In this document: one piece after another, positions 3,394-45,038 of the stretch
How positions within the stretch are numbered: position 1 is the stretch's first letter
How the letters are laid out: each line of letters opens with the position of its first letter
Source: a virus
Lineage: Duplodnaviria; Heunggongvirae; Uroviricota; Caudoviricetes
DNA: 45,038 nucleotides
IMG/VR virus record: IMGVR_UViG_651053023_000003
Span: 1 to 45,038 of that record
Strand: one strand, 5' to 3'
The notes under the pieces: model-generated
Databases searched by the model: none
Seen by the model: the letters and a program-made list of their open reading frames with translations, nothing else
Told to the model about the DNA's origin: nothing
Made by a program: the position numbers and the translations under genes

Positions 3394-3739
3394 TTTTATG
3401 TCCTTTGCATTTGTTCAGATAGCCCTGTGTTCAGCAGGGCGGTCAGGTACTTGAACACCGTGCAAAGTCGGCCCGTATCCTTAACCTTTCGGCTGTTTTT
3501 CGGTATACGCGCTACCCGACCATATCTGAGAAATGGACATAAAAAAGCCGCATGACTGACGGGTGCGGTTTCCGCTTTGCAAGGTGTGTTCAGCACCATG
3601 AAGCGGAATATAGCCCCGTTAATGCGGATTTGTCAAATCATGTAGGCCTTATCTTGCTGTAAGCCGCGCCATTCGGGCTTTTCCCCATATTTGGGGAAAA
3701 CTATCTGCGAATTATTCACCTTTGACGGCAAGTTGCAGG

Positions 3740-4357
3740 TTAGCCACGCTTAACCTCCTGCGGCGGTTCCGGTAGCGGCATCCAGTGAGTTGCTTGCTCA
3801 ATACCATTACCCGGCTTAATCGTTGCATCTCCGCGCCGAAAGGTGCTTCCGGTATAGCGTGCGGAGCATATTAGCGGTTCAACCAGAGAGCTATCGAAAT
3901 TCACCGAAATAAGCACGTTCTGGCCCTTTTCAGGCATTCGCTCACTACAGCTTATCCAACCATCCTTAATGCAATTACCTTGACTCTGAAGCATAGCGGC
4001 ACGACAGGCGTTCCAGCCTCTCACCTCTGCAATAGCGGCAACAGCATCAACCGCGTACATTTTAAGAGGGTTAGGCATTGGTTTTTCTTCCGGTACTACT
4101 GGAACGGGGGGAGCGGCGTAGACCTCAATAATTCCATTATCAATAGGCCATTCTCCATCCTTGAGGTAGTCACTTGCGCCGTCAACTTGCTGTTCTGCAA
4201 TGTGGAATGCACCTATTGGTTTTGCTTCCAGCGATGCCAGTGCAATTCGTGCCAGTTCTTCCGCTTCTTCTGCTGGCAGTACAACGTTGCTACCAGGTCC
4301 GTATGTTTCGCGCCACTGCTTGATTGTCAGTAGTCGCTCTTTGGTAATAGTGGTCAT
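3740..4357 (-). CDS. Hypothetical early-region phage protein (possibly DUF551-type)
   Basis: 205-aa ORF in the int-proximal ea/b region, co-oriented with neighbours; domain assignment tentative. Confidence 0.45.
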   Translation of the reverse strand: MTTITKERLLTIKQWRETYGPGSNVVLPAEEAEELARIALASLEAKPIGAFHIAEQQVDGASDYLKDGEWPIDNGIIEVYAAPPVPVVPEEKPMPNPLKMYAVDAVAAIAEVRGWNACRAAMLQSQGNCIKDGWISCSERMPEKGQNVLISVNFDSSLVEPLICSARYTGSTFRRGDATIKPGNGIEQATHWMPLPEPPQEVKRG

Positions 4358-4367
4358 AGGTTAGTCC

Positions 4368-4988
4368 TTAATCATCTGCTTGCAGTGGTGGTAAATCCGG
4401 CACTGTTACGCCAAACAATGCAGCCAGCGCACGATAGTTTTGCTCACTGTGATAGCGGCCTTTACAGCGAACCAGTTTTTCAGCGGCTGTAACAATCGAG
4501 CTTTGTTCTGCTATGCGCTTTTCTGAGGCTTCAAGTAACGCCTGCTTGTCGCGTAGTGCTTCTTCCAGTTCAGCAACATGGCATTCACTATCAATGAGGT
4601 TGTTCTCTGTTGCTTCCAGCTCAACACGCAGCTTCACTACCGTTAGCGCAATATCCTCGTTCTCCTGATCGCGGAGTTTGATGTATTGCTGGTTTCTTTC
4701 CCGTTCATCCAGCAGTGCCAGCACAGTAACAGGATTGGCTGCGGCGATGAATTCAGCATTGGCCTGCTGTTCCATTTGGAAATCTTCATCGAAACCGCTT
4801 TCAGGATGCACTCCTTCAATTCTGCAAATGGGAAGATATCCAACAACGTCACGATGAATTAGCGCATCATCACAATCAAATCGGCTCTCTCCATATTCTA
4901 GCGACCACACACCACACGTTGCTTTCTCTGCCTTTTCACGCAGTGCCTGATAATCAATCTGGCTCACTGGTTGCCTCCTTTGCGCCAC
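4368..4988 (-). CDS. Ea22/Ead-like early protein
   Basis: 206-aa acidic, coiled-coil-rich ORF in ea region; resembles Ea22-like prophage proteins from memory. Confidence 0.45.
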
Positions 4989-7030: not shown

Positions 7031-7163
7031 TTTTTGGGACTCCTGGCTGATTAAGTACGTCGATGAGTCGTTTCCATCCGTCACGTAATTTGCGGGTGAT
7101 TCGTTCAAGTAAAGATTCGGAAGGGCAGCCAGCAACAGGCCACCCTGCAATGGCATATTGCAT
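6999..7163 (-). CDS. cIII: CIII (FtsH inhibitor, stabilises CII)
   Basis: 54-aa MQYAIAGWPVAGCPSESLLERITRKLRDGWKRLIDVLNQPGVPKNGSNTYGYPD, essentially lambda CIII from memory; AAGGAG Shine-Dalgarno upstream. Confidence 0.85.
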   Translation of the reverse strand: MQYAIAGWPVAGCPSESLLERITRKLRDGWKRLIDVLNQPGVPKNGSNTYGYPD

Positions 7164-7759
7164 GGTGTGCTCCTTATTTATACATAACGAAAACGCCTCG
7201 AGTGAAGCGTTATTGGTATGCATATAAAAAGGCCCTCACACTGGAGGGCAAAGAAGATTTCCAATAATCAGAACAAGTCGGCTCCTGTTTAGTTACGAGC
7301 GACATTGCTCCGTGTATTCACTCGTTGGAATGAATACACAGTGCAGTGTTTATTCGTATGCCTGTCTTTTAACCACATCAGGCTCGGTGGTTCTCGTGTA
7401 CCCCTACAGCGAGAAATCGGATAAACTCTATTCACCCCCTACAGAGAGAATGATGGAGATTCACCGATGAGTAACTGGTGGCAGGAACTATTACGTTTCT
7501 TCCTGCGTGGTCTTACGCTACAACAGTTAATTCATATGCTTATTATTTTAATTGCCTTGATAATAATCACCCCTGCATCAATTAAAGAGTGGGTAGATAT
7601 AAGGAACCCAGAAATACTTCCAGATCACTGGATGTATTACGCAATGCTTTTGTGTATCAGTTATGTTCTGAACAGGGTGATGGAGTTTATATTTCTGGCA
7701 TCTTCAGACAGATATAAAAAATATCTCAGTAAGAGAGATGAGGCTAAAGTAATTGTGGA

Positions 7760-7768: not shown

Positions 7769-9097
7769 CTGAGAGATCCCCTCATAATTTCCCCAAAGCG
7801 TAACCATGTGTGAATAAATTTTGAGCTAGTAGGGTTGCAGCCACGAGTAAGTCTTCCCTTGTTATTGTGTAGCCAGAATGCCGCAAAACTTCCATGCCTA
7901 AGCGAACTGTTGAGAGTACGTTTCGATTTCTGACTGTGTTAGCCTGGAAGTGCTTGTCCCAACCTTGTTTCTGAGCATGAACGCCCGCAAGCCAACATGT
8001 TAGTTGAAGCATCAGGGCGATTAGCAGCATGATATCAAAACGCTCTGAGCTGCTCGTTCGGCTATGGCGTAGGCCTAGTCCGTAGGCAGGACTTTTCAAG
8101 TCTCGGAAGGTTTCTTCAATCTGCATTCGCTTCGAATAGATATTAACAAGTTGTTTGGGTGTTCGAATTTCAACAGGTAAGTTAGTTGCTAGAACCCATG
8201 GCTCCTTTGCCGACGCTGAGTAGATTTTAGGTGACGGGTGGTGACAATGAGTCCGTGTCGAGCGCTGATTTTTTCGGCCTTTAGAGCGAGATTTATACAA
8301 TAGAATTTGGCATGAGATTGGATTGCTTTTAGTCAGCCTCTTATAGCCTAAAGTCTTTGAGTGACTAGATGACATATCATGTAAGTTGCTGATAGGTTTC
8401 CAGTTTTCCGCTCCTAGGTCTGCATATTGTACTTTTCCTCTTACTCGACTTAACCAGTACCAACCCAGCTTCTCAACGGATTTATACCATGGCACTTTAA
8501 AGCCAGCATCACTGACAATGAGCGGTGTGGTGTTACTCGGTAGAATGCTCGCAAGGTCGGCTAGAAATTGGTCATGAGCTTTCTTTGAACATTGCTCTGA
8601 AAGCGGGAACGCTTTCTCATAAAGAGTAACAGAACGACCGTGTAGTGCGACTGAAGCTCGCAATACCATAAGTCGTTTTTGCTCACGAATATCAGACCAG
8701 TCAACAAGTACAATGGGCATCGTATTGCCCGAACAGATAAAGCTAGCATGCCAACGGTATACAGCGAGTCGCTCTTTGTGGAGGTGACGATTACCTAACA
8801 ATCGGTCGATTCGTTTGATGTTATGTTTTGTTCTCGCTTTGGTTGGCAGGTTACGGCCAAGTTCGGTAAGAGTGAGAGTTTTACAGTCAAGTAATGCGTG
8901 GCAAGCCAACGTTAAGCTGTTGAGTCGTTTTAAGTGTAATTCGGGGCAGAATTGGTAAAGAGAGTCGTGTAAAATATCGAGTTCGCACATCTTGTTGTCT
9001 GATTATTGATTTTTCGCGAAACCATTTGATCATATGACAAGATGTGTATCCACCTTAACTTAATGATTTTTACCAAAATCATTAGGGGATTCATCAG
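7769..9097 (-). mobile_element. IS10 insertion sequence (1329 bp)
   Basis: Inside end CTGAGAGATCCCCTCATAATTTCCCC at 7769; outside end (reverse complement CTGATGAATCCCCTAATGATTTTGGTAAAAATCATTAAG) ends at 9097; length 1329 bp; intact transposase. Confidence 0.95.
7782..8990 (-). CDS. IS10 transposase
   Basis: 402-aa ORF MCELDILHDSLYQFCPELHLKRLNSLTLACHALLDCK... matches IS10 transposase from memory. Confidence 0.95.
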   Translation of the reverse strand: MCELDILHDSLYQFCPELHLKRLNSLTLACHALLDCKTLTLTELGRNLPTKARTKHNIKRIDRLLGNRHLHKERLAVYRWHASFICSGNTMPIVLVDWSDIREQKRLMVLRASVALHGRSVTLYEKAFPLSEQCSKKAHDQFLADLASILPSNTTPLIVSDAGFKVPWYKSVEKLGWYWLSRVRGKVQYADLGAENWKPISNLHDMSSSHSKTLGYKRLTKSNPISCQILLYKSRSKGRKNQRSTRTHCHHPSPKIYSASAKEPWVLATNLPVEIRTPKQLVNIYSKRMQIEETFRDLKSPAYGLGLRHSRTSSSERFDIMLLIALMLQLTCWLAGVHAQKQGWDKHFQANTVRNRNVLSTVRLGMEVLRHSGYTITREDLLVAATLLAQNLFTHGYALGKL

Positions 9098-15275: not shown

Positions 15276-15602
15276 ATGACTAAAAATACTCGTTTTTCCC
15301 CCGAAGTCCGTCAGCGGGCGATTCGTATGGTTCTGGAAAGTCAGGATGAATATGACTCACAGTGGGCGGCAATTTGTTCCATTGCCCCAAAGATTGGCTG
15401 TACGCCGGAGACTCTGCGTGTCTGGGTTCGCCAGCATGAGCGGGATACCGGGGGCGGTGATGGTGGGCTCACCAGCGCTGAACGTCAGCGTCTGAAAGAG
15501 CTGGAACGTGAAAATCGTGAACTGCGCCGCAGTAACGATATCCTTCGCCAGGCTTCCGCTTATTTTGCGAAGGCGGAGTTCGACCGCCTCTGGAAAAAAT
15601 GA
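15276..15602 (+). CDS. IS3-family transposase OrfA
   Basis: 108-aa [38 protein letters not shown]... with HTH and leucine-zipper-like region. Confidence 0.85.
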
Positions 15603-16489
15603 TGCCACTGCTGGATAAGCTGCGTGAGCAGTACGGGGTCGGACCGGTATGCAGCGAACTGCATATTGCCCCGTCAACGTATTACCATTGTCAGCAACAG
15701 CGACATCATCCGGATAAACGCAGTGCCCGTGCGCAGCACGACGACTGGCTGAAGAGAGAGATACAGCGCGTATACGATGAAAATCATCAGGTGTACGGTG
15801 TGCGTAAAGTCTGGCGTCAGTTGTTACGGGAAGGAATCAGGGTGGCCAGATGTACAGTGGCACGTCTCATGGCGGTTATGGGACTTGCCGGTGTTCTCCG
15901 GGGTAAAAAGGTCCGTACGACCATCAGCCGGAAAGCCGTTGCCGCAGGCGACCGCGTAAACCGTCAGTTCGTGGCAGAACGACCTGACCAGCTGTGGGTG
16001 GCTGATTTTACTTACGTCAGCACATGGCAGGGCTTCGTCTATGTGGCGTTTATCATTGATGTGTTTGCCGGATACATCGTGGGGTGGCGGGTCTCATCGT
16101 CTATGGAAACGACATTCGTGCTGGATGCGCTGGAGCAGGCGTTGTGGGCCCGTCGTCCGTCTGGCACCATCCATCACAGCGATAAAGGCTCTCAGTATGT
16201 GTCACTGGCCTATACGGAGCGACTAAAAGAAGCCGGATTACTGGCATCAACAGGGAGTACAGGCGACTCGTATGACAACGCGATGGCTGAGAGCATCAAT
16301 GGTCTTTACAAAGCGGAGGTAATACACCGTAAGAGCTGGAAAAACCGTGCAGAAGTGGAACTGGCCACACTAACGTGGGTGGACTGGTATAACAATCGAC
16401 GATTGCTGGGAAGGCTGGGCCATACTCCTCCGGCAGAAGCAGAAAAAGCTTATTATGCTTCCATCGGAAACAATGATCTGGCAGCCTGA
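15599..16489 (+). CDS. IS3-family transposase OrfB (DDE catalytic domain; expressed as OrfAB by -1 frameshift)
   Basis: 296-aa ORF with integrase-core motifs; overlaps the orfA end at the A-rich run around 15590-15603. Confidence 0.85.
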
Positions 16490-35380: not shown

Positions 35381-36847
35381 ATGGCTACTTGGCAAGGATC
35401 AAATGGCGGATTATTGGCTGGTATCGGCGGCGTCAACTCAAACGCTCCGAACGTAAATGACATCGGCAATACGCTTCAGTTTATCAGGCAGAACAATGAT
35501 ATTGAGCGTTCAGGCGCTAACAATGTTGGGCTGACTGCTTTGCAAGGCCTTTCAGGTATTGCGGGGGTGTTTCAGCAGGAAAAGCAGGCTCAGCGGCAGA
35601 AAGAATTTCAGCAGGCATACGCTAATGCTTATGCGTCTGGTGATCGCGGTGCTTTGCGTCAGTTGGCTACTCAATATCCAGACCAGATTGAATCCGTTCG
35701 TAAAGGCATGGGATTCATTGATGAAGACCAACGCAATTCTATCGGCACCTTAGCGGCTGGCGCACGCCTTGCGGCCTCGTCTCCAGAAGCAATGCAATCA
35801 TGGCTGCAAAACAACGCCAATGAGCTGGCGCGCGTCGGTGTTGACCCTAATAACGTTGCTCAGATGTATCAGCAGAATCCTTCAGGATTTGGTGAGTTTG
35901 TTGATCACCTTGGGATGGCTGCTCTCGGTCCGATTGACTACTTCAATGTTCAGGACAAGATGGCTGGTCGTGAGATTGACCGAGGCAGGCTGGCAGAGAC
36001 AATCCGCAGCAATCAGGCCGGAGAAGCACTTCAGGCGAGAGGGCAGGATATTAGCCGAGCAAATGCGTTAACGTCAGCATATGCACCAACAGCCGCAATG
36101 CAGAATTACAATCAGTACGCGCAAATGTTAAAGGCAGATCCAGATGGTGCAGCGGCATTTGCGGCAGCGGCGGGAATTAATCCCAATGCTAAGAAATTAC
36201 TTAAGGTTGAAACCAATCCTGATGGATCGGTAACTAAGTATTACACCGATGGCAGCGAGGAAGCCGGAAAACTAAACCAACCTATATCTGGTGATGGCAT
36301 TAAACCAATTAGCTTGCCACAAGCGCAAAGCATCATAGATAAGGCTAATGAGGGTTCCAAGAAGGCGGCAGGATTTGCTTTGCGATTAAAAGATTCAATG
36401 GACTCAATGAATCAGCTTAGTAAAAGCATTGACCCTAAGCGAGTTGCATTAATAAATCGCTCTCTTGGTGATGGGACTATTGCAAATTTAAGCCTATCAC
36501 CAGCGGAGCAGCAATATATGGTAAATGCGAGAGACGCCTTGTATGCAATTTTGCGCCCAGAAACAGGTGCAGCAATTACTCTGCCAGAGATGCAGGAGTA
36601 TTCCAAAATGTACCTGCCTCAGCCCGGTGATTCCAAGGCTGCTACTGAAACAAAAATGCGAAAAATGCAGGGCCAATATAACTCATTACGTGGTCAGTCT
36701 GGTCGCGTTTATGATGCTTTGGTGGTTTCAAGTGCTGCAAATAGTCAACAACAGAGCAATAGCCAACAACCGACAAATACCCAACAGCAGCAGAGTCAAT
36801 CCGGATCATATACCTCAAAATCAGGCATTCAATTTACGGTGGAATGA
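35381..36847 (+). CDS. Ejection protein (P22 gp20-like)
   Basis: 488 aa, conserved order. Confidence 0.65.
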
Positions 36848-38970
36848 TGAAAGTAACTGCAAACGGTAAGACATTTACCTTCCCTGATGGTACGAGCACG
36901 GAAGATATTGGCACCGCCATTGATGAGTATTTTGCTGGTCAGGCTGTTCAGCAACAAACAGTTAATCAGGCCAATAATGCACCAACACGGGAAGAACCAT
37001 CATTAATGCAACAAGCTGGCGATTGGCTCACTGGTGGTCAAAGTGCAGGGCAAATTGCAGAACAGGCTGGTCGTGGTCTGGTAAACATACCATTTGACGT
37101 ATTGCAGGGTGGCGCAAGTCTGATTAATGCAATCAGTCAGGGGCTTGGTGGGCCAAAAGTATTGGATGATGTCTATCGTCCAGTCGATCGACCGACAGAC
37201 CCTTATGCGCAAGCTGGAGAAACAATTGGCGGGTATCTCCTGCCAATTGGCACAGCGGCAAAAGTTGCTGGAGCGCCAGCAAAGCTCGCAGGAGACATCG
37301 GTTCCGCAGGAAACATGATTGCAGGTTCTCTTGCTGATGCTGCAAATCAGGAGGGTGATTTTGCACAAAATGCTGCCATTAACGGTGGTATCAATATTGG
37401 TGCTCAAGGCGTTCTTTCAGGTGTCGGGCGCGTTATTGCGCCAAGGGTTTCACAGGCTCTTGGTGGTGCAGCACTGAATTCTGCTAATGAAGTTTCTAGG
37501 ATGGCAAAGTCAGGTGCTGGGCGTCAGTCAATTGCCAGTCAGGCCGCTAATGTGTCCGAAGATGTAGCAAAAGCGGCTGAGTCTGCTGGAATTGATATAA
37601 ACGCATTAACACCAGGAATGCGATCTGGAAGTCGTGGAATTGCACAAGCCGAAGGCGCATTGGCATCAACACCTGGAATTGTTCAGGACGCCCATCAGGC
37701 AGCATTTAACGAAATATCATCAAAGTTAAGTCGAAACCTTGATGAATTTGGGGCCACATCTGGAACGGCATCAGAAAAAAGTGCGGCTATAAAACAAAGG
37801 ATTCTTCAAAATCTTGATCAGATGAAGGATGCCGAGCGCGCGGCATGGGATGACGTGCGGTCAACAATGCCAAATCAAAAAGCAAGAATGCTAAATGGTA
37901 ATGCCGTTATTCAGGCAGAGCGATCTGCTGGCATACCGCTTACTCCTGAAATGAAACAGTTTGTTCAGGCAAACAATCAAGGTGGAGTAACATTTGATGG
38001 CATGAAAGCATGGAGAGCGAAATTTGCTGATGCGGAGCAAAAATATAAGCGTAGCGGAGAGGCAAATGCGGCAAGGAGAGCAGGGGAAATACGCCGGGCA
38101 ATTACTGATGATATGCGCACAATGGCGGAAAACGGCGGATTTCTTGATGACTGGCAGAAAGCTAATGATCTGTCTAAAGCGAGGTTATCAGCACAAGAGA
38201 GTGCAGAGTCTGTTTTCGGGCGTGATTTGGCAACAGATGCACTGATTACGAATGGAGTAAAATCCCTTCAATCATCGTCAGCTAAAGGTCTTAATGGTCC
38301 TGCTGGATTCCATTCTATGATCCGCGCGCTGCCAGAATCAGAGCGTGTTCCTGCTATATCATCAATGTTGCAAGATGCTATCTCGCATGGTGTACGTGGT
38401 GGCAAAGCTGATGCAGCAGGAATTAACCATATCGCAGAGATACTGACTCCACAAAATGTAAAAGCCATTAGCCGATATTCCTCAGAGCTTGGAAGAATTG
38501 CTGATGCATATGGCACTCTTGCAAGAGCAGCAGTGAAACCTCAGCAGTATATTGAAAGAACAGGTAGAACTGCCAATGTACTACGCGATCTGGATGCTGG
38601 TTTATCCAACGTCACATCAACAGTGTTAAATGCAATTGCCAATTCAACATCAGGTGCCATTGTTGGTGGCGCTGGAGGAGGCATTGCAGGCGCTGCCGCA
38701 GGTGCTTTAGTTGGCGCTGGGTTAAAAGGCGCTGTATCTAAAATTGCCACCACACGTAGTGGTCGGTATGCGATAGAGAAAGCGGTTCAGGAAGCAACTA
38801 AAGCAGTAAGAGCAGGCGGAAGCAAAGAAGCATTAGCGGCGGCGGAACGCAGATTTATGGCAAATAAGGCCGCCGTAAAAGCAATACGCGAGGCACTAGG
38901 AAACGAAGAGTTCCAGCGTTTAGCAAGGGCTGGAATTGTGGCATCGCTAAGCGGAATGGCACAGGAGTAA
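36844..38970 (+). CDS. Ejection protein (P22 gp16-like)
   Basis: 708 aa, alanine/glycine-rich, conserved order. Confidence 0.65.
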
Positions 38971-39300
38971 TTAGTCATCCATGGATGGATTGAGCTTATC
39001 TCGTGTTGATGTGGCAATTTTACCAACATTTTTCAACCAAGATTTTAAGAAGGATATGTCGTCCTTAATATCATGAATATCCTCATTCTTTATACGATCA
39101 ACCTTATCCTCTAGGCTCTCTATAGAACGCTCAATGCTAGACAGAGAGATTTTTAAGTCTCCTTGCTCACGTTCCAGTGAGGATTTGAGAGCACAATATT
39201 CGTTTTCTAGAATTCCTATTTTTTTTGTTAGAGAGTGCATTCGATACTCATACACCAAACTAGAAACGACTAATGCAGCCAACAGAAACCATTCAAGCAC
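38971..39300 (-). CDS. Hypothetical membrane-anchored coiled-coil protein (accessory gene)
   Basis: 109 aa from a GTG start with AAGGAGG Shine-Dalgarno; N-terminal transmembrane segment LEWFLLAALVVSSLVY; convergent with the gp16-like gene; AT-rich. Confidence 0.55.
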   Translation of the reverse strand: MLEWFLLAALVVSSLVYEYRMHSLTKKIGILENEYCALKSSLEREQGDLKISLSSIERSIESLEDKVDRIKNEDIHDIKDDISFLKSWLKNVGKIATSTRDKLNPSMDD

Positions 39301-39668: not shown

Positions 39669-40118
39669 ATGTTTATGCTCACTTGTTTTGATGTCGCCGA
39701 CTACTTCTTGGCGCATTGCGATGAAGAAAGTGGCGACATTATCTCTAACCTAAAAATTCAGAAGTTGACGTATTATGCCCAAGGGTTTTCTCTGGTTCTT
39801 CTGGGTAAGCCGCTATTTAATGAGAAAATTGAAGCCTGGATGCATGGGCCAGTAGTTCCTGAATTGTATCGTAAATATAGGGACTGTGGTAACGGAGCTT
39901 TACCTGCGCCAGAAAACTTTGACGCTAAAAAATTCAGTGAAGATGAAATTGAATTGCTGGATGAGGTGTATAAAGTTTATGGTCAGTTTTCTGCCTGGAA
40001 ACTGCGCAATATGACTCACGAAGAGCAGCCATGGAAAGATGCTTACATTGAGGGTGCGGTTAGCCAAGAAATCACACTTGATTCTATGAAAGGTTTTTTC
40101 AAAACGTTAATTAACTGA
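39669..40118 (+). CDS. Panacea-domain (DUF4065, GepA/SocA-like) protein; candidate PanA-type antitoxin
   Basis: 149 aa; motifs ...KIQKLTYYAQGFSLVLLGKPLFNEKIEAWMHGPVVPELY... typical of DUF4065 from memory; GGAGG Shine-Dalgarno. Confidence 0.6.
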   Translation: MFMLTCFDVADYFLAHCDEESGDIISNLKIQKLTYYAQGFSLVLLGKPLFNEKIEAWMHGPVVPELYRKYRDCGNGALPAPENFDAKKFSEDEIELLDEVYKVYGQFSAWKLRNMTHEEQPWKDAYIEGAVSQEITLDSMKGFFKTLIN

Positions 40119-40123
40119 CGTGT

Positions 40124-40546
40124 ATGTCTAGAGTTAAGGGAAGAATAAAACAGAGGGATAAAGAGAGCTCTGCTACTGTTGGCCTCTCTATCCATCACGA
40201 ATCTCATGATGTAGACAAAAGTCCGCCTGTATTTTCTCTTAGATACCTACAAAAGGGGTATTGCCTAGATTGCTGCCAAAAGCATGAAAAGGCAGCATTT
40301 GCAGATAGGCTGTTCAGGTTAAGTCGGATGTCATGGGATGAGATACGAAAATCTGATAAACACGGGCTTGGGACGGAAAAAATTGCCAGAAACGCGATAA
40401 AAGCTCCGATTCCTAAGCATGTTACTCAAGATGTGGATTTCATTGCGTTCAGATTTTGCTCTAAGGCACCTATGGTTGGTTATAAGATAGGAGCCACTTT
40501 TTATGTCTTATGGCTCGACAGGGAGTTCAAGCTATACAAGCACTAA
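40124..40546 (+). CDS. Hypothetical protein, candidate toxin partner of the Panacea-domain protein
   Basis: 140-aa ORF starting 5 nt after the upstream stop; basic; C-terminus ...GATFYVLWLDREFKLYKH faintly RelE/ParE-like; followed by a terminator. Confidence 0.45.
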   Translation: MSRVKGRIKQRDKESSATVGLSIHHESHDVDKSPPVFSLRYLQKGYCLDCCQKHEKAAFADRLFRLSRMSWDEIRKSDKHGLGTEKIARNAIKAPIPKHVTQDVDFIAFRFCSKAPMVGYKIGATFYVLWLDREFKLYKH

Positions 40547-40548
40547 TA

Positions 40549-40576
40549 AAACCCACCGTCAGGTGGGTTTTTTTGT
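40549..40576 (+). terminator. Rho-independent terminator after the two-gene module
   Basis: AAACCCACC-GTCA-GGTGGGTTT stem-loop followed by TTTTTT. Confidence 0.8.
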
Positions 40577-40590
40577 TGGAGATAAAATGG

Positions 40591-40794
40591 TTAACCAAAT
40601 CGATCCTTAAAGCGTCTATCGCTGTTGCGTCTCTCCATTTTACTGTTGCAGTACGGACAAAGATGCTGTTTCTTTCCATCGATAGTCCATGTGAAGTACT
40701 TTTTCTTAAATCCAGCACCACAGATATCGCAACTTCTTGGTTTAAACATACTGGCTATGAAGATAAGAACAACAAATCCTATGATCCATTCCAT
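40591..40794 (-). CDS. Small membrane-anchored zinc-ribbon protein
   Basis: 67 aa; N-terminal transmembrane segment MEWIIGFVVLIFIASMF then CDICG...(16 aa)...CPYCN. Confidence 0.45.
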   Translation of the reverse strand: MEWIIGFVVLIFIASMFKPRSCDICGAGFKKKYFTWTIDGKKQHLCPYCNSKMERRNSDRRFKDRFG

Positions 40795-40935: not shown

Positions 40936-41121
40936 ATGACCATAGAAGAACGCCTGAACAACATTGAGTTGAACCAAACCCTGCTTGACCAGCGACTTTC
41001 AGATCTTGAGCTTAAAGATCTGGATGCGCAAATATCAGAAGCAGAAGCCAAGCTCTCCAGCTTAAACCACCGCAAGAAGCAAATCCGCAACAGAATTACT
41101 CAGGGACGCGGAAGCCGTTGA
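40936..41121 (+). CDS. Hypothetical small coiled-coil protein
   Basis: 61-aa ORF from the ATG at 40936 with perfect AAGGAG Shine-Dalgarno. Confidence 0.45.
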   Translation: MTIEERLNNIELNQTLLDQRLSDLELKDLDAQISEAEAKLSSLNHRKKQIRNRITQGRGSR

Positions 41122-41130
41122 AATCATAGT

Positions 41131-41448
41131 CTATTTTTTCTCAGAGCTCATATTGTAATAGGTGGTATAAATAGAGATTGATTTCTGACATGCTTCAAGA
41201 AATTGCTGCGGAGTCATCCCGAGCCTTGCTTGCTCTGTAGTAAGGAATCTCTGTAAGAATTCATTCCCACCTGGCATGTTTGTAGATTCTTGGAATATTG
41301 CCATTTGTTTGATTGCACCACACATACCAGCCATTTTAGAAGCTATCATGAGGCCTTGTATTTCATCAAAACTGCTATCGTCTGATTTTGTTTCTGCGTT
41401 AGCTATGCTCGAGAGACACAGGAGCAATAGGATAGCGATACGTTTCAT
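41131..41448 (-). CDS. Hypothetical secreted/periplasmic protein co-transcribed with mnt
   Basis: 105 aa with Sec signal peptide MKRIAILLLLCLSSIANA; start overlaps the mnt stop (ATGA). Confidence 0.5.
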   Translation of the reverse strand: MKRIAILLLLCLSSIANAETKSDDSSFDEIQGLMIASKMAGMCGAIKQMAIFQESTNMPGGNEFLQRFLTTEQARLGMTPQQFLEACQKSISIYTTYYNMSSEKK

Positions 41449-41696
41449 TTTTCACCATTGCCATGCATACATTTTAACTTCTCAACATCATGCTCAAGCT
41501 CTATCAGTCGCGATGCTATAGTTGCAAGATCTAGTGCTTGAATGTGTTTGTTTTTTTCGGTCCATGCTTCAAGTGCTGCGACCATCTCAGCATTTAATGA
41601 ACGAGAATTAGCCTCAGCCAGTTCAATAAGACGTTCCTTTATCTCTACAGGAAGCCTCAGATTCACTTGAGGGTTTTTGTACTTACGATCAGACAT
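41445..41696 (-). CDS. mnt: Mnt-like ribbon-helix-helix repressor
   Basis: 83 aa (same length as P22 Mnt); N-terminal RHH-like NLRLPVEIKERLIELAEANSRSLNAEMVAAL; divergent from arc/ant. Confidence 0.7.
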   Translation of the reverse strand: MSDRKYKNPQVNLRLPVEIKERLIELAEANSRSLNAEMVAALEAWTEKNKHIQALDLATIASRLIELEHDVEKLKCMHGNGEK

Positions 41697-41800
41697 CGGC
41701 GCATCCTGAATAATTTTTTACCACAGGATATGTAGGTATCTATTGACTATCAATGCGTACCTAAATACTATGTATGCGTACCACATACAAAGGAGCAAAA

Positions 41801-41947
41801 ATGAAAGTTAAGACATTAAGGATGCCAGAATGGCTGGAAAAGGCTTTGGAGCAGTCCGCGAAAAAGGATGATCGGTCGTTCAGTAATGAGGTATTGAGGA
41901 GACTAAAGGAGTCAGTAGCTAAGGATGGAATTGTTTGTCCAGAATGA
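41801..41947 (+). CDS. arc: Arc-like ribbon-helix-helix repressor (below the ORF-track cutoff)
   Basis: 48-aa ORF read from sequence: MKVKTLRMPEWLEKALEQSAKKDDRSFSNEVLRRLKESVAKDGIVCPE; AAGGAG Shine-Dalgarno; immediately upstream of ant. Confidence 0.65.
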   Translation: MKVKTLRMPEWLEKALEQSAKKDDRSFSNEVLRRLKESVAKDGIVCPE

Positions 41948-42013: not shown

Positions 42014-42943
42014 ATGAAAAGTATAGCAACAGCAGTATCTACTATCAACGTGCCATTCCACGGCGCAGAGCTTTATGTCGTCAATCACAACGGTGAGCCG
42101 TACACCCCAATGAAACCTATCGTTGAAGGTATGGGTATGGATTGGGCTTCACAGTTTACGAAAATAAAGCAACGGTTTAAAACCTCCATTGTGAAAATCA
42201 CAATGCAGCTTCCTGGTGATGAACAGTGCCGTGAGATTATTTGTTTGGCACTTCGCAAACTTGCTGGCTGGCTGCAAACCATCAGCCCTAACAAAGTCCG
42301 CACTGAAATCCGCGACAAGGTAATCCAGTATCAGGAAGAGTGTGACGATGTGCTCTACGAATACTGGACTAAAGGCCATGTAGTTAACCCGCGCAAAGCT
42401 AAAAAGGCGTTGCCGGGTAAAATCACCACTGAACAGCAGGAAGCCATTAAACAACTCGTCATGAGTCGCGGTCAGTCTCTGCCAAAGGAAAAACAGGCGA
42501 AGGCAATGATTACCATGTGGTCGTCACTGAAATCTCATTTTGGGTGTTCATACAAAGAAATCAGCGATGAGCAGTTTACCGAAGCTCTGTCACTTGCAGC
42601 TCGCGTTCCGCTTGAAGGCGAGTTAATCGGCAAACAAGAGAAGAAAGCAAACGAGCTTTCTGCAAAAGAAGCAAACAGCCTTGTATGGTTATGGGATTAT
42701 GCCAACCGCTCACAGGCATTATTCCGCGAACTGTATCCGGCGCTAAAACAAATTCAATCGAACTATTCAGGCAGATGCTACGACTACGGTCATGAGTTCT
42801 CGTATGTTATCGGAATGGCGAGAGACGTTTTAATCAATCACACACGAGATGTTGATATTAATGAGCCAGACGGACCAACGAATCTTTCCGCATGGATGAG
42901 ACTTAAGAATAAAGAATTACCTCCTTCAGTACATAACTACTGA
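42014..42943 (+). CDS. ant: Antirepressor Ant
   Basis: 309-aa ORF downstream of arc, followed by a terminator; architecture as P22 immI. Confidence 0.7.
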
Positions 42944-43043: not shown

Positions 43044-45038
43044 ATGACAGACATTACAGCCAATGTGATCGTATCGATGCCTTCGCAACTTTTCACTATG
43101 GCGCGTTCTTTTAAAGCGGTTGCCAATGGCAAAATTTATATCGGTAAAATTGACACTGACCCGGTGAATCCTGAAAACCAGATTCAGGTTTATGTGGAAA
43201 ACGAAGACGGTTCTCACGTTCCTGTTTCGCAACCAATCATCATTAACGCTGCTGGTTATCCTGTATATAACGGACAGATTGCCAAATTCGTAACTGTGCA
43301 AGGCCATTCTATGGCTGTTTATGATGCGTACGGTGCGCAGCAGTTCTATTTTCCTAACGTCCTGAAGTATGACCCTGACCAATTAAGGCAAGAATTAGCT
43401 TCTGACAGAGGAGCAACATTATCATTAAGTCAGATAGCTACTTCTTACGGCCTTGATTTCTCGTTAGGCGGTGTATGGCGGGAGGGGGCGTTATCTAATG
43501 TTGATAACTGGTGGTGGTATAATAATAAAATCTACACCGGTGGTAGCGGCACTCTTCCGTCATCTCCTGCTTTGCCATGGTACGAAGTGACGGTAGCAGA
43601 TTATATTTCTGTTGCTCAATTTTTCCCCATTACTGGTGATCCAGCGGCAGATAACTCAGCTAGCTTTAATGCTGCTGCAGCAGTTGCTTTATCGGCAGGA
43701 AAGAGGCTGTTTGTCCCTGCAGGAACTTACTATGTTAAGTCACCAGTTGATTTAACAATAGGCACTGTTGACCTATTCGGGGATGGCGTTGAGAAGTCAT
43801 TCATTATTGCGGGGAGTGGGTTCACTGGAGAGACAGTTGTCAACATGTACTACGAAACTGACTCTATAAGACGTAGCACATCTATCTCTCACGTTACAGT
43901 TGATGGGAACAACATCGCCAACTATGCTTGCCGAATTCAATATGTTCACCTAGGAAGAACCCATAATTGTCGTTTCATCAATGGCGTGGTGGCGAACTTC
44001 TATACTATAAACGACTGGCTTAATACCTATGATTGCTGTTCTTTTGTTCCTGCGCCAAATCGCGGAGTTCACCTTGCTGGGGCTAACAACCGCGTAACGT
44101 TCAATAACTGTGGATTTGCATCAAATAAGGTCGGTGAATATGCCTTTTATGCTTCTGGTACTTCCCCTATTGAAGGTTTAAGCTTAATTGGATGTGACCT
44201 TGAGTTCGGCATTGGGCATGGCATGTACTTAAATACCCGAGTGACCAATATTGTTGGCGGGTACTATGGCGAAGCGATACAAGGCGATATCTTTACGGTT
44301 CCAGATGGAGTAGTAAAAATAAGCGGTGTAAATGCTTTTGTAGGATATTACAATGAGGGAGGAAGGTTTGTTGTTCTTGACAATGATGCTGTAGTTAAGG
44401 TTGATAGTTGCTGGATTGCAGATCAGGGCAACTTTAAACTTTCATTACTTGCATCAAGCACTGACAACAGGGCTCATGCTGTATTTACTAATTGTTATAT
44501 TGGTGCAACTGTGTCTGGCCCACAAGTTATGGAAGGAGATTGTTTAGGCAAGATTAATATGAGGACGTTTGCAGAAAGCAGAGCAATCCTTTATACAATG
44601 AACAATACTGGTAATACAGTAACCAGAAGCAGATACAACTCAATAGGAGCAAAAATAACCATTAATACCGTAACGACCCCTAGTTCTAACAAGCTATCAC
44701 TTAATACTAAGATAAAAGACAGAGGGTGGAAGGTTAACGACCGGGTATACTTAATTGTTACTTATGAGAGTAATGTTGATATAAATATTTATTTAAGCAG
44801 TTCGATATATGCTGCATCGGATGCAACGCTATTTGGAACTTTACCATCAACAAATGGTTCTTTATCTACGTGTTATATTGCTAATAATATTATTCCGGAA
44901 AATACATCTGAGATATTCGAGTTTTATGTAAATGGCGCTGGTGTTGGCGATTACTTTGCTATTCAGGATGTTACTCTTACAGACAGGTCATTCACTTTCA
45001 GTGGAACAACTATGACCACTTTTGCTAAGGCTGAATAA
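43044..45038 (+). CDS. Tailspike protein (P22 gp9-type N-terminal head-binding domain, divergent receptor-binding beta-helix domain)
   Basis: 664 aa; N-terminus [50 protein letters not shown]... parallels P22 tailspike residues ~1-120 from memory; rest differs; stop at window end. Confidence 0.85.

Follow-up and report, generated by a model that had tools for sequence, protein, structure and literature searches.

A predicted periplasmic moron protein encoded in overlap with the mnt-type repressor gene of a P22-like Escherichia coli prophage

We describe a small accessory gene of a P22-like prophage of Escherichia coli, the product of which is very probably an exported, periplasmic moron protein expressed in lysogens. 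The window, i.e. the whole stretch of DNA that was analysed, is 45,038 nucleotides long and corresponds to positions 1 to 45,038 of the IMG/VR virus record IMGVR_UViG_651053023_000003. Its sequence marks the open reading frame (ORF) as a genuine moron, i.e. an accessory gene, located in the immI or "ant moron" region of this prophage. The combined reading, an exported and lysogen-expressed moron protein that also has a protective role in the cell envelope, is in our judgement evenly balanced; the protective role itself, either phage exclusion or toxin immunity, is one that we infer. Phage exclusion as the specific role is a tentative proposal, made by analogy with known exclusion proteins.

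The window is a P22-like prophage in which a lambda-type integrase gene (1419-2489) adjoins a host pectinesterase-like gene. The ejection-protein genes extend up to 38970, with a gp16-like gene at 36844-38970, the tailspike gene starts at 43044, and the secreted-protein gene sits between these homologues of P22 genes 16 and 9. A variable "ant moron" between the gp16-like and tailspike genes has been described for P22-like phages (Villafane et al. 2008, PMC2629481). The right half of the ant moron in the window is a complete immI-type module, in which the genes for the Arc-fold repressors, mnt and arc, are divergent and are followed by ant. The features of the region are the following:

40936..41121, plus strand: converging gene for a 61-aa coiled-coil protein (phrog_7586), a neighbour with a functional link to the secreted-protein gene that is putative at most
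41131..41448, minus strand: CDS of the secreted protein, 105 codons (105 aa), stop TAG at 41133-41131, phrog_19844 member
41445..41448, minus strand: ATGA overlap of the mnt stop and the ORF start, read directly from the sequence; fits translational coupling
41452..41456, minus strand: Shine-Dalgarno-like GGTGA in the 3'-terminal part of mnt, separated from the ORF ATG by 3 nt, read directly
41445..41696, minus strand: gene for an mnt-type maintenance repressor, 83 aa, ribbon-helix-helix, Arc domain PF03869 with E 3e-10
41725..41753, minus strand: Pmnt-like sigma-70 promoter, TTGATA-17-TATCCT, from a consensus scan; no other promoter-like site precedes mnt and the ORF
41729..41767, no strand: operator-like inverted repeat with 18-nt arms, 78% complementary, spanning both promoter-like sites
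41743..41771, plus strand: Pant-like promoter, TTGACT-17-TACTAT, from a consensus scan, divergent from and overlapping the Pmnt-like site
41768-41792: second palindrome, near the operator-like repeat
41801..41947, plus strand: gene for an arc-type repressor, 48 aa from the ATG at 41801, with the ORF open from 41774; PF03869 with E 1.6e-5
42014..42943, plus strand: ant antirepressor gene, 309 aa, P22_AR_N with E 2e-44 and P22_AR_C with E 3e-29, phrog_245

The Mnt analogue, encoded divergently from arc-ant, is 42% identical to P22 Mnt over residues 5-40, which form the DNA-binding region. Promoter-like consensus matches were no more frequent than in shuffled sequences, and the argument for the two candidate promoters is their position and a layout like that of P22 Pmnt and Pant. 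The stops of the phrog_7586 gene and of the secreted-protein gene are 9 nt apart, and no intrinsic terminator was found between them. A search with Rfam over the whole window gave no sar-like RNA at the gathering threshold, and there is no sieA in the window.

At the junction of the two genes, the minus strand reads ...AAT GGT GAA AAA TGA at the end of mnt, overlapped by ATG AAA CGT ATC at the start of the ORF. The ATG of the ORF occupies 41448-41446 and the TGA of mnt 41447-41445, the four bases ATGA being common to both, and the overlap reported in the earlier note is thereby confirmed base by base. The same 4-nt overlap is kept with the second, 72%-identical allele of the gene, both in the three loci examined (L014, L020 and L022) and in the O104:H4 strain described below. 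Because of the overlap there is no room for a terminator between mnt and the secreted-protein gene, and the consensus scan found no separate promoter-like site inside mnt upstream of the latter. Since the ORF has no promoter-like site of its own, the simplest reading is that it is made together with Mnt in lysogens, as had been suggested. In P22 immI, Mnt is made in lysogens, where it keeps Pant off, and a gene coupled to mnt would thus be a lysogen-expressed gene. The spacing of the Shine-Dalgarno-like element to the ATG is short (3 nt), and was counted against the reading of coupling and expression.

Comparison with the 72%-identical allele gave a dN/dS of 0.16 overall and of 0.11 for residues 31-105, a pattern from which the gene is judged to be under purifying selection and not a chance ORF. 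The 105-aa protein matches phrog_19844 with E 1.1e-69 over residues 1-105 of 105, i.e. the full-length profile. Because of the dN/dS of 0.11, this full-length match and a family of 256 clusters at 50% identity, we regard the ORF, which the earlier note had placed at exactly these coordinates, as genuine.

A homology search had also been proposed, and it revealed a family (phrog_19844, 256 clusters) in which all members are uncharacterised. The exhaustive profile HMM search covered 1.84 billion representatives and gave 256 clusters at 50% identity with E <= 1e-3, of which 167 had E <= 1e-10, nearly all of about 100 aa; a word-indexed search gave close enterobacterial relatives only. The named sources are E. 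coli, Salmonella, Citrobacter, Yersinia, several Pseudomonas, Nitrosomonas, Methylophaga and a Deferrisomatales MAG, and the annotation in all of them is "hypothetical" protein. There was no Pfam match for the protein at E <= 0.1, nor for 30 diverse members at E <= 0.01. The 105-aa protein had no match in NCBIfam, and none at E <= 0.01 to the defence models of PADLOC-DB 2.0; its only PHROG match, phrog_19844, is unannotated. When the literature was searched by protein accession and by topic, no paper on the secreted protein was found.

Within E. coli the gene is rare, being present in 53 of 5,426 complete genomes (~1%), always as a single chromosomal copy. The copies fall into 35 with at least 95% identity and 18 with ~75% identity. 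Eleven of twelve among the matches listed also cover an annotated hypothetical-protein gene that overlaps a gene for an 'Arc family DNA-binding protein'. In O104:H4 2011C-3493, which carries the second (72%) allele, the annotated coordinates overlap those of the Arc-family gene by 4 nt. The gene is absent from 72,556 plasmids and was found in only two of 50,697 phage records, those of S.Kent 1-2-1 (identical) and Kapi1 (47%). This rarity in E. coli belies the much wider spread of the family as a whole.

The two E. coli alleles show 93-100% DNA identity through mnt; with the first codons of the ORF the identity drops to ~55-80%, and past the stop codon of the ORF homology is lost. The drop of identity at the ORF start and the end of homology at its stop, with the overlap being kept, mark the gene as an exchangeable cassette which always re-forms its coupling to mnt. 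The 3' neighbour also differs by allele: it is the converging phrog_7586 gene in the window and a gene for a 161-aa lipoprotein, on the same strand, next to the 72% allele. This 161-aa protein was considered as a SieA candidate, but it is a lipoprotein without similarity to SieA.

Gene neighbourhoods were collected from a genome-contig scan, with a narrower alignment (5 loci), and from a metagenome scan (20 loci, many too short for context). The gene is located downstream of an Arc/Mnt-type repressor gene in P22-like prophages and in two lambda-like siphovirus prophage types, with a 4-nt overlap in the P22-like ones. In the siphovirus-type prophages (L024, L025 and L039), ant points away from a gene for an Arc-domain protein (142-170 aa) that is followed by the family gene. 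L024 and L025 encode a major tail protein, an Rz spanin and Ant, and L039 is a lambda-like Yersinia prophage with the ant/Arc/family-gene module inserted among tail genes. Elsewhere the family gene is solitary, beside tail or lysis genes of Pseudomonas prophages or between homologues of Mu F and G. A distant family member lies in a CBASS-carrying integrase island (L032), and members also adjoin the PADLOC candidates PDC-S31 and PD-Lambda-3_B / Hypoth_Ymh/HEPN-like protein; the association with defence islands amounts to three loci. Three further family loci (L035, L037 and L042) have no obvious phage, defence or mobile character. When the immediate neighbours (35 non-redundant, from ~30 loci) were compared with Pfam and PHROGs, Arc was the only recurrent Pfam family (3 of 35), and many of the neighbours matched PHROGs, i.e. 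phage proteins. No conserved toxin, effector, enzyme or membrane partner gene was seen among the ~30 non-redundant loci. As no partner gene is conserved, the secreted protein would act alone.

The product can be divided into two parts:

41395..41448, minus strand: signal peptide, codons 1-18 (MKRIAILLLLCLSSIANA), with a predicted signal peptidase I cut after A18, between ANA and ET
41134..41394, minus strand: mature domain, 87 aa, ~9.8 kDa, pI ~5, predicted three-helix bundle

The N-terminus thus reads MKRIAILLLLCLSSIANA followed by ETKSDD, with the predicted cut before E19. All parts of a Sec signal are present, namely the n-region MKR, the h-region IAILLLLCLSSI and the site A-N-A before E, with small residues at -3 and -1. 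The hydrophobic core has 10 residues with a Kyte-Doolittle mean of 3.15. A hydrophobic leader was found in 206 of the 207 family members with complete N-termini, and K or R precedes it in 195. The Sec signal peptide recognised in the earlier note is consequently a property of the whole family. Beyond the signal segment there is no other membrane-spanning stretch, the best 19-residue hydropathy mean in the mature part being 1.14, which supports a mature part that is soluble and not an integral membrane protein. A lipoprotein processed by signal peptidase II was also considered and rejected: in L-L-L-C11 the L at -1 is disallowed and the lipobox [LVI][ASTVI][GAS]C does not match, while C11 is not conserved in the family and a lipobox-like string occurs in only 4 of 208 members. 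The homologue in phage Kapi1, Kapi1_059, is annotated in the Kapi1 record by DeepTMHMM as 'signal 1-22, outside 23-103'. All named family hosts are diderm Proteobacteria.

An AlphaFold model made with 66 sequences had a mean pLDDT of 85.7, with 92-98 over the core residues 31-90; with 10 sequences the pLDDT was 74. The predicted fold consists of the leader helix and then three helices, at residues 24-56, 61-76 and 80-103. Two cysteines, C43 and C87, are invariant, the first of them within G41-M-C43-G44 in helix 1. Exactly two Cys are present in the mature part of 189 of 208 members, and 195 of 208 have the pair 44 residues apart. The helix register would bring C43 of helix 1 and C87 of helix 3 to about the same level along the bundle. 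The invariance of the two cysteines and this register suggest a disulfide and hence an oxidising compartment; an invariant cysteine pair fits the oxidising periplasm. The earlier note had described a periplasmic rather than an inner-membrane protein. The Sec signal, the soluble mature part and the cysteine pair agree with this, the periplasmic location itself being predicted, as are cleavage and disulfide formation. Taken together, export to the periplasm and expression in lysogens appear well supported by the features of the sequence.

The most conserved stretch of the family is FQxxT(K/N)MPGG(D/N)EF, which is modelled as a loop and N-cap between helices 1 and 2, and of which F52-Q-E-S-T-N-M-P-G-G-N-E-F64 is the version in the window. 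The invariant or near-invariant residues are K38, G41, C43, G44, Q48, F52, Q53, T56, G60, G61, F64, R67, F68, E72, R75, L76, G77, C87 and Y94. The loop reads PGGDEF in most family members and PGGNEF in the window protein. A GGDEF diguanylate cyclase was rejected, as there was no PF00990 match and the domain is a helical bundle of 87 residues; the letters are coincidental. Fold searches with the AlphaFold model gave no significant structural match in the PDB or BFVD, and a sequence search of the PDB with the family profile gave one chance match (E 0.25).

We propose that the ORF is transcribed from the Pmnt-like promoter in one message with the Mnt-type repressor, and that the ATGA coupling would result in continuous production at a modest level in lysogens. 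After Sec export and A-X-A cleavage, an acidic protein of 87 residues would be released into the periplasm and could fold there into a bundle of three helices fixed by a C43-C87 disulfide, with the invariant T-K/N-M-P-G-G-D/N-E-F loop at one end. The loop and a conserved polar face would then bind a widely conserved component working in the periplasm. Since the family is strongly conserved even between enterics and such genera as Pseudomonas and Nitrosomonas, its target is more likely to be something widely conserved than, specifically, an ejection protein of the P22 type. Our leading guess for the target is an entry function of a superinfecting phage, e.g. a virion cell-wall hydrolase or the trans-periplasmic DNA conduit, in a logic analogous to that of T4 Spackle, P1 Sim and the HXS effector. 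Interference with incoming phages, as already suggested in the earlier note, may be regarded as a reasonable guess with precedents. Protection of the lysogen is favoured because the same region carries sieA elsewhere, because the gene occurs in several prophage morphotypes and because it is occasionally located in defence islands. It is possible, and no stronger word is intended, that the proteins form a new widespread family of small periplasmic binders or inhibitors with an undescribed three-helix fold, neutralising a conserved step of phage entry or a periplasmic toxin, and that in enterobacterial phages they have been wired to Mnt/Arc so that protection is on exactly during lysogeny. Exclusion proteins tend to be narrow and fast-evolving, and one would not usually expect them to be conserved across Enterobacteria, Pseudomonas, Nitrosomonas and Methylophaga, as this family is. 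The family has been tied to no function, whether by experiment or by homology, and this likewise speaks against an exclusion role.

A high degree of conservation also suggests a conserved host target, and the protein could then be a lysogenic-conversion factor which alters the host envelope by inhibiting a lysozyme or lytic transglycosylase, by acting on O-antigen or LPS assembly or as a stress chaperone. Its size, charge and single predicted disulfide recall small periplasmic helper proteins. Phage Kapi1, which has a homologue, modifies the O-antigen by an unidentified gene, and a construct with DNA flanking Kapi1 'hyp19' was toxic in non-lysogens (PMC8787464). From a coverage figure of 2%, hyp19 is probably the 722-aa gp16-like gene that adjoins the homologue. 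The Kapi1 link is, however, circumstantial, as the identity of hyp19 is deduced, and it is a lead rather than evidence. The bacteria in which the family is found also differ greatly in their surface polysaccharides. No Pfam, PDB-sequence or fold match was obtained to Ivy, PliC/MliC, PliG, HdeA, Spy/CpxP or Tai/Tsi-type immunity proteins, and there is no similarity to any Pfam family. We consider a conversion factor rather unlikely.

Conserved loop and polar residues are also what an inhibitor of a conserved enzyme would show, and a small, exported protein with a predicted disulfide bond could be an orphan immunity protein against a periplasm-acting toxin, such as a T6SS amidase, muramidase or phospholipase or a bacteriocin of the colicin M/pesticin type, giving the host a competitive gain. 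The spread of the family on mobile elements across Proteobacteria agrees with this, and the gene stands alone, as orphan immunity genes do. In the ~30 non-redundant loci, however, it was adjoined neither by a gene for a cognate effector or toxin nor by genes of a T6SS or for a bacteriocin, and the protein matched no Pfam immunity family and no fold of a solved immunity protein. This explanation is in our view improbable.

A role in the lytic cycle of the phage itself or in the lysis-lysogeny decision, e.g. in restraining an endolysin or spanin or in sensing the envelope, with the position next to mnt being incidental, is very unlikely. In L024 the gene is near an Rz-like spanin gene, and in the Mu-like contig L054 it lies between virion morphogenesis genes, as such a role might predict. 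Nevertheless, most P22-like phages do without the gene (2 of 50,697 phage records; ~1% of E. coli genomes), so that the lytic cycle evidently does not require it; its link is to a lysogeny-expressed repressor and not to late or lysis operons, and it is also found outside prophages. A spurious or decaying ORF without function, for which its annotation everywhere only as 'hypothetical protein' might speak, can practically be dismissed in view of the dN/dS of 0.11, the 256 clusters with invariant residues, the confident structure model, and the frame and mnt coupling kept across alleles.

With an exported, lysogen-expressed moron protein as the preferred reading, envelope-protein cargo in the "ant moron" is of a known kind, whereas the secreted-protein family itself is unannotated and without structural relative or literature. 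If the protein does block phage entry or a periplasmic toxin, a function would be assigned to a family of more than 250 clusters without a Pfam entry, and it would follow that Mnt-type immunity modules carry an envelope defence of their own. If there is no such block, the gene is one more cargo gene in the fast-changing "ant moron". Being a single gene of 318 bp for which there are a confident structure model, a defined loop to mutate and a natural allele pair, it is a compact candidate for testing, and its natural carriers include the 2011 O104:H4 outbreak strain. On present evidence we find it moderately interesting: an ordinary-looking moron, yet a clean and cheap experimental target.

According to the RefSeq annotation of P22, Pmnt is followed by mnt, orf59a and the mnt terminator, and then by sieA with its own promoter. 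The earlier note had assigned the ORF to a sieA-like position. This is correct in that both genes are located in the same "ant moron" between genes 16 and 9; by the order in the P22 annotation, however, the ORF is in the slot of orf59a on the mnt transcript and not strictly in that of sieA. P22 orf59a has the same position and strand, directly downstream of mnt and before the end of the mnt transcript. Its product, however, has 59 aa, is glycine- and lysine-rich, lacks a signal peptide and is unrelated by inspection, and orf59a is separated from mnt by ~100 bp whereas the window gene overlaps it. The likeness to P22 sieA is that of a prophage-expressed gene in the ant moron between gene 16 and the tailspike gene 9, of which the ORF could be an alternative occupant. 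SieA, of 162-164 aa, is anchored in the inner membrane by three transmembrane segments, lacks a signal sequence and blocks the gp16/gp20 DNA conduit, and only a third of P22-like phages carry sieA (Leavitt et al. 2024, PMC10883804). In contrast to this membrane protein, the window protein has a single N-terminal hydrophobic segment and would be soluble after the predicted cleavage; also, sieA is transcribed from a separate promoter past the mnt terminator, whereas the window gene overlaps mnt. Homology to SieA was rejected, as hhalign of the family profile against P22 SieA gave a probability of 0.07%. A true homologue is Kapi1_059 of Escherichia phage vB_EcoP_Kapi1, which is 47% identical and encoded between the gp16-like gene and mnt, on the mnt strand. 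It does not overlap mnt, however; three genes, one of them convergent, lie between the two, and coupling to mnt is thus not universal.

Envelope-level exclusion is to our knowledge the least catalogued kind of prophage protection, with few proteins that are understood (SieA, Sim, Spackle, Imm, Cor/Llp and HK97 gp15). P1 Sim, HK97 gp15 and the lipoproteins Cor and Llp are single exported or membrane proteins by which a resident element prevents the entry of DNA or the use of a receptor. The periplasmic HXS effector belongs with them (PMC13128918). The window protein is not homologous to any of these (its only PHROG match being phrog_19844, and PADLOC giving none); unlike Cor and Llp it is not a lipoprotein, and no maturation enzyme gene was nearby in the loci scanned. 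Closest in general design is T4 Spackle (Sp), also a phage precursor of about 100 aa (97 aa for Sp), whose N-terminal signal is cleavable and whose small mature domain contains two cysteines. Spackle structures are present in the PDB, and a relation to Spackle was rejected, as hhalign gave a probability of 0.2% and no PDB chain was significant in fold searches. Spackle acts in the periplasm in superinfection exclusion, where it inhibits the gp5 tail lysozyme of an incoming phage; the window protein may follow the same logic, as a soluble periplasmic binder that disarms part of an arriving virion. Sp is, however, an early gene of a virulent phage, whereas the gene described here is a prophage gene tied to the maintenance repressor.

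The variable ant moron that holds the secreted-protein gene also carries a two-gene cassette, which was recognized from Pfam, PHROG and PADLOC matches and is followed directly by a terminator:

39669-40546, plus strand, two-gene cassette
40548-40571, strong intrinsic terminator directly after the second gene

The first gene encodes a 149-aa protein with a SocA/Panacea antitoxin domain (PF13274, E 2e-24), and the second, which begins 5 nt after it, encodes a 140-aa protein of phrog_8366 with a weak match to the PADLOC NsnC C-terminal model (2.7e-7). Judged from these domain matches, the two genes resemble a toxin-antitoxin pair of the PanA type or a defence pair. Two further small genes of the moron encode proteins with a membrane segment:

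40591-40794, minus strand, 67-aa protein, transmembrane segment at the N-terminus, CxxC...CxxC zinc-ribbon
38971-39300, minus strand, 109-aa protein, transmembrane segment at the N-terminus, then a long coiled coil

The database matches of the zinc-ribbon protein were all weak. The coiled-coil gene lies directly against the stop codon of the gp16-like gene, which is encoded on the other strand. The coiled-coil product is annotated as hypothetical in the RefSeq entry of strain ET245.

The immI region of E. coli ET245 (L002) is 100 % identical to that of the window. Its P22-like prophage is a remnant (L002 2615-4171), in which an IS1 stands in place of all DNA between ninX and the gp16-like gene's 3' end; despite this replacement, mnt and the secreted-protein gene are both intact.

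In prophages with the second E. coli allele, 72 % identical to that of the window, the family gene is followed after a gap of 25 nt by a lipoprotein gene on the same strand:

L014 4529-5014, same strand as the family gene, 161-aa lipoprotein (MKKSLLIIPLLLAGC...)
L069 (E. coli O104:H4 2011C-3493) 4341-4826, same strand as the family gene, 161-aa lipoprotein

The mnt operon of these prophages is predicted to encode two envelope proteins. SieA was ruled out as the identity of the lipoprotein, which has no similarity to it. In phage Kapi1 (L001 3707-4249), a second small secreted protein of 61 aa, with a signal at residues 1-22, is encoded just upstream of the gene for the family homologue. The Kapi1 gene 'hyp19' is probably a neighbour of the homologue. 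A construct with DNA flanking 'hyp19' was reported to be toxic, and the O-antigen-modifying gene of this phage was never found (PMC8787464).

Among the distant family members, that of Pseudomonas nitroreducens lies within an integrase/resolvase island (L032 1226-13232) carrying a CBASS pair, CD-NTase and Cap15. Directly downstream of two others are a PDC-S31 candidate defence protein (L041 7344-7973, E 3e-26) and a Hypoth_Ymh / PD-Lambda-3_B-like protein (L040 7334-8512, E 7e-13), respectively. One metagenomic relative (P0023, 202 aa, JGI) is a single secreted protein with two tandem copies of the domain.

Elsewhere in the window, gene and Rfam matches showed that the early-left region has received an IS10-type insertion and that an IS3-family element sits within the replication or nin region. 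Two other Rfam matches complete the list:

7782-9052, IS10-type insertion
7782-8990, minus strand, its DDE transposase
8983-9052, plus strand, its RNA-OUT antisense RNA
15276-16489, IS3-family element
15557-15673, ALIL frameshift pseudoknot between the two overlapping ORFs of the IS3-family element
7118-7176, minus strand, lambda cIII thermoregulator element
3433-3521, minus strand, sRNA-Xcc1 family

The whole window was also scanned for the sar RNA, and no Rfam match to sar was obtained at the gathering threshold. The top-scoring promoter-like site of the region in the consensus scan was found just within the 5' end of ant:

42020-42048, minus strand, TTGATA-17-TATACT with an extended -10 TG, consensus score 10/12

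The site is directed back over the ant ribosome-binding site. Its placement and direction relative to ant are the same as those of Psar, the promoter of the antisense sar RNA in P22.
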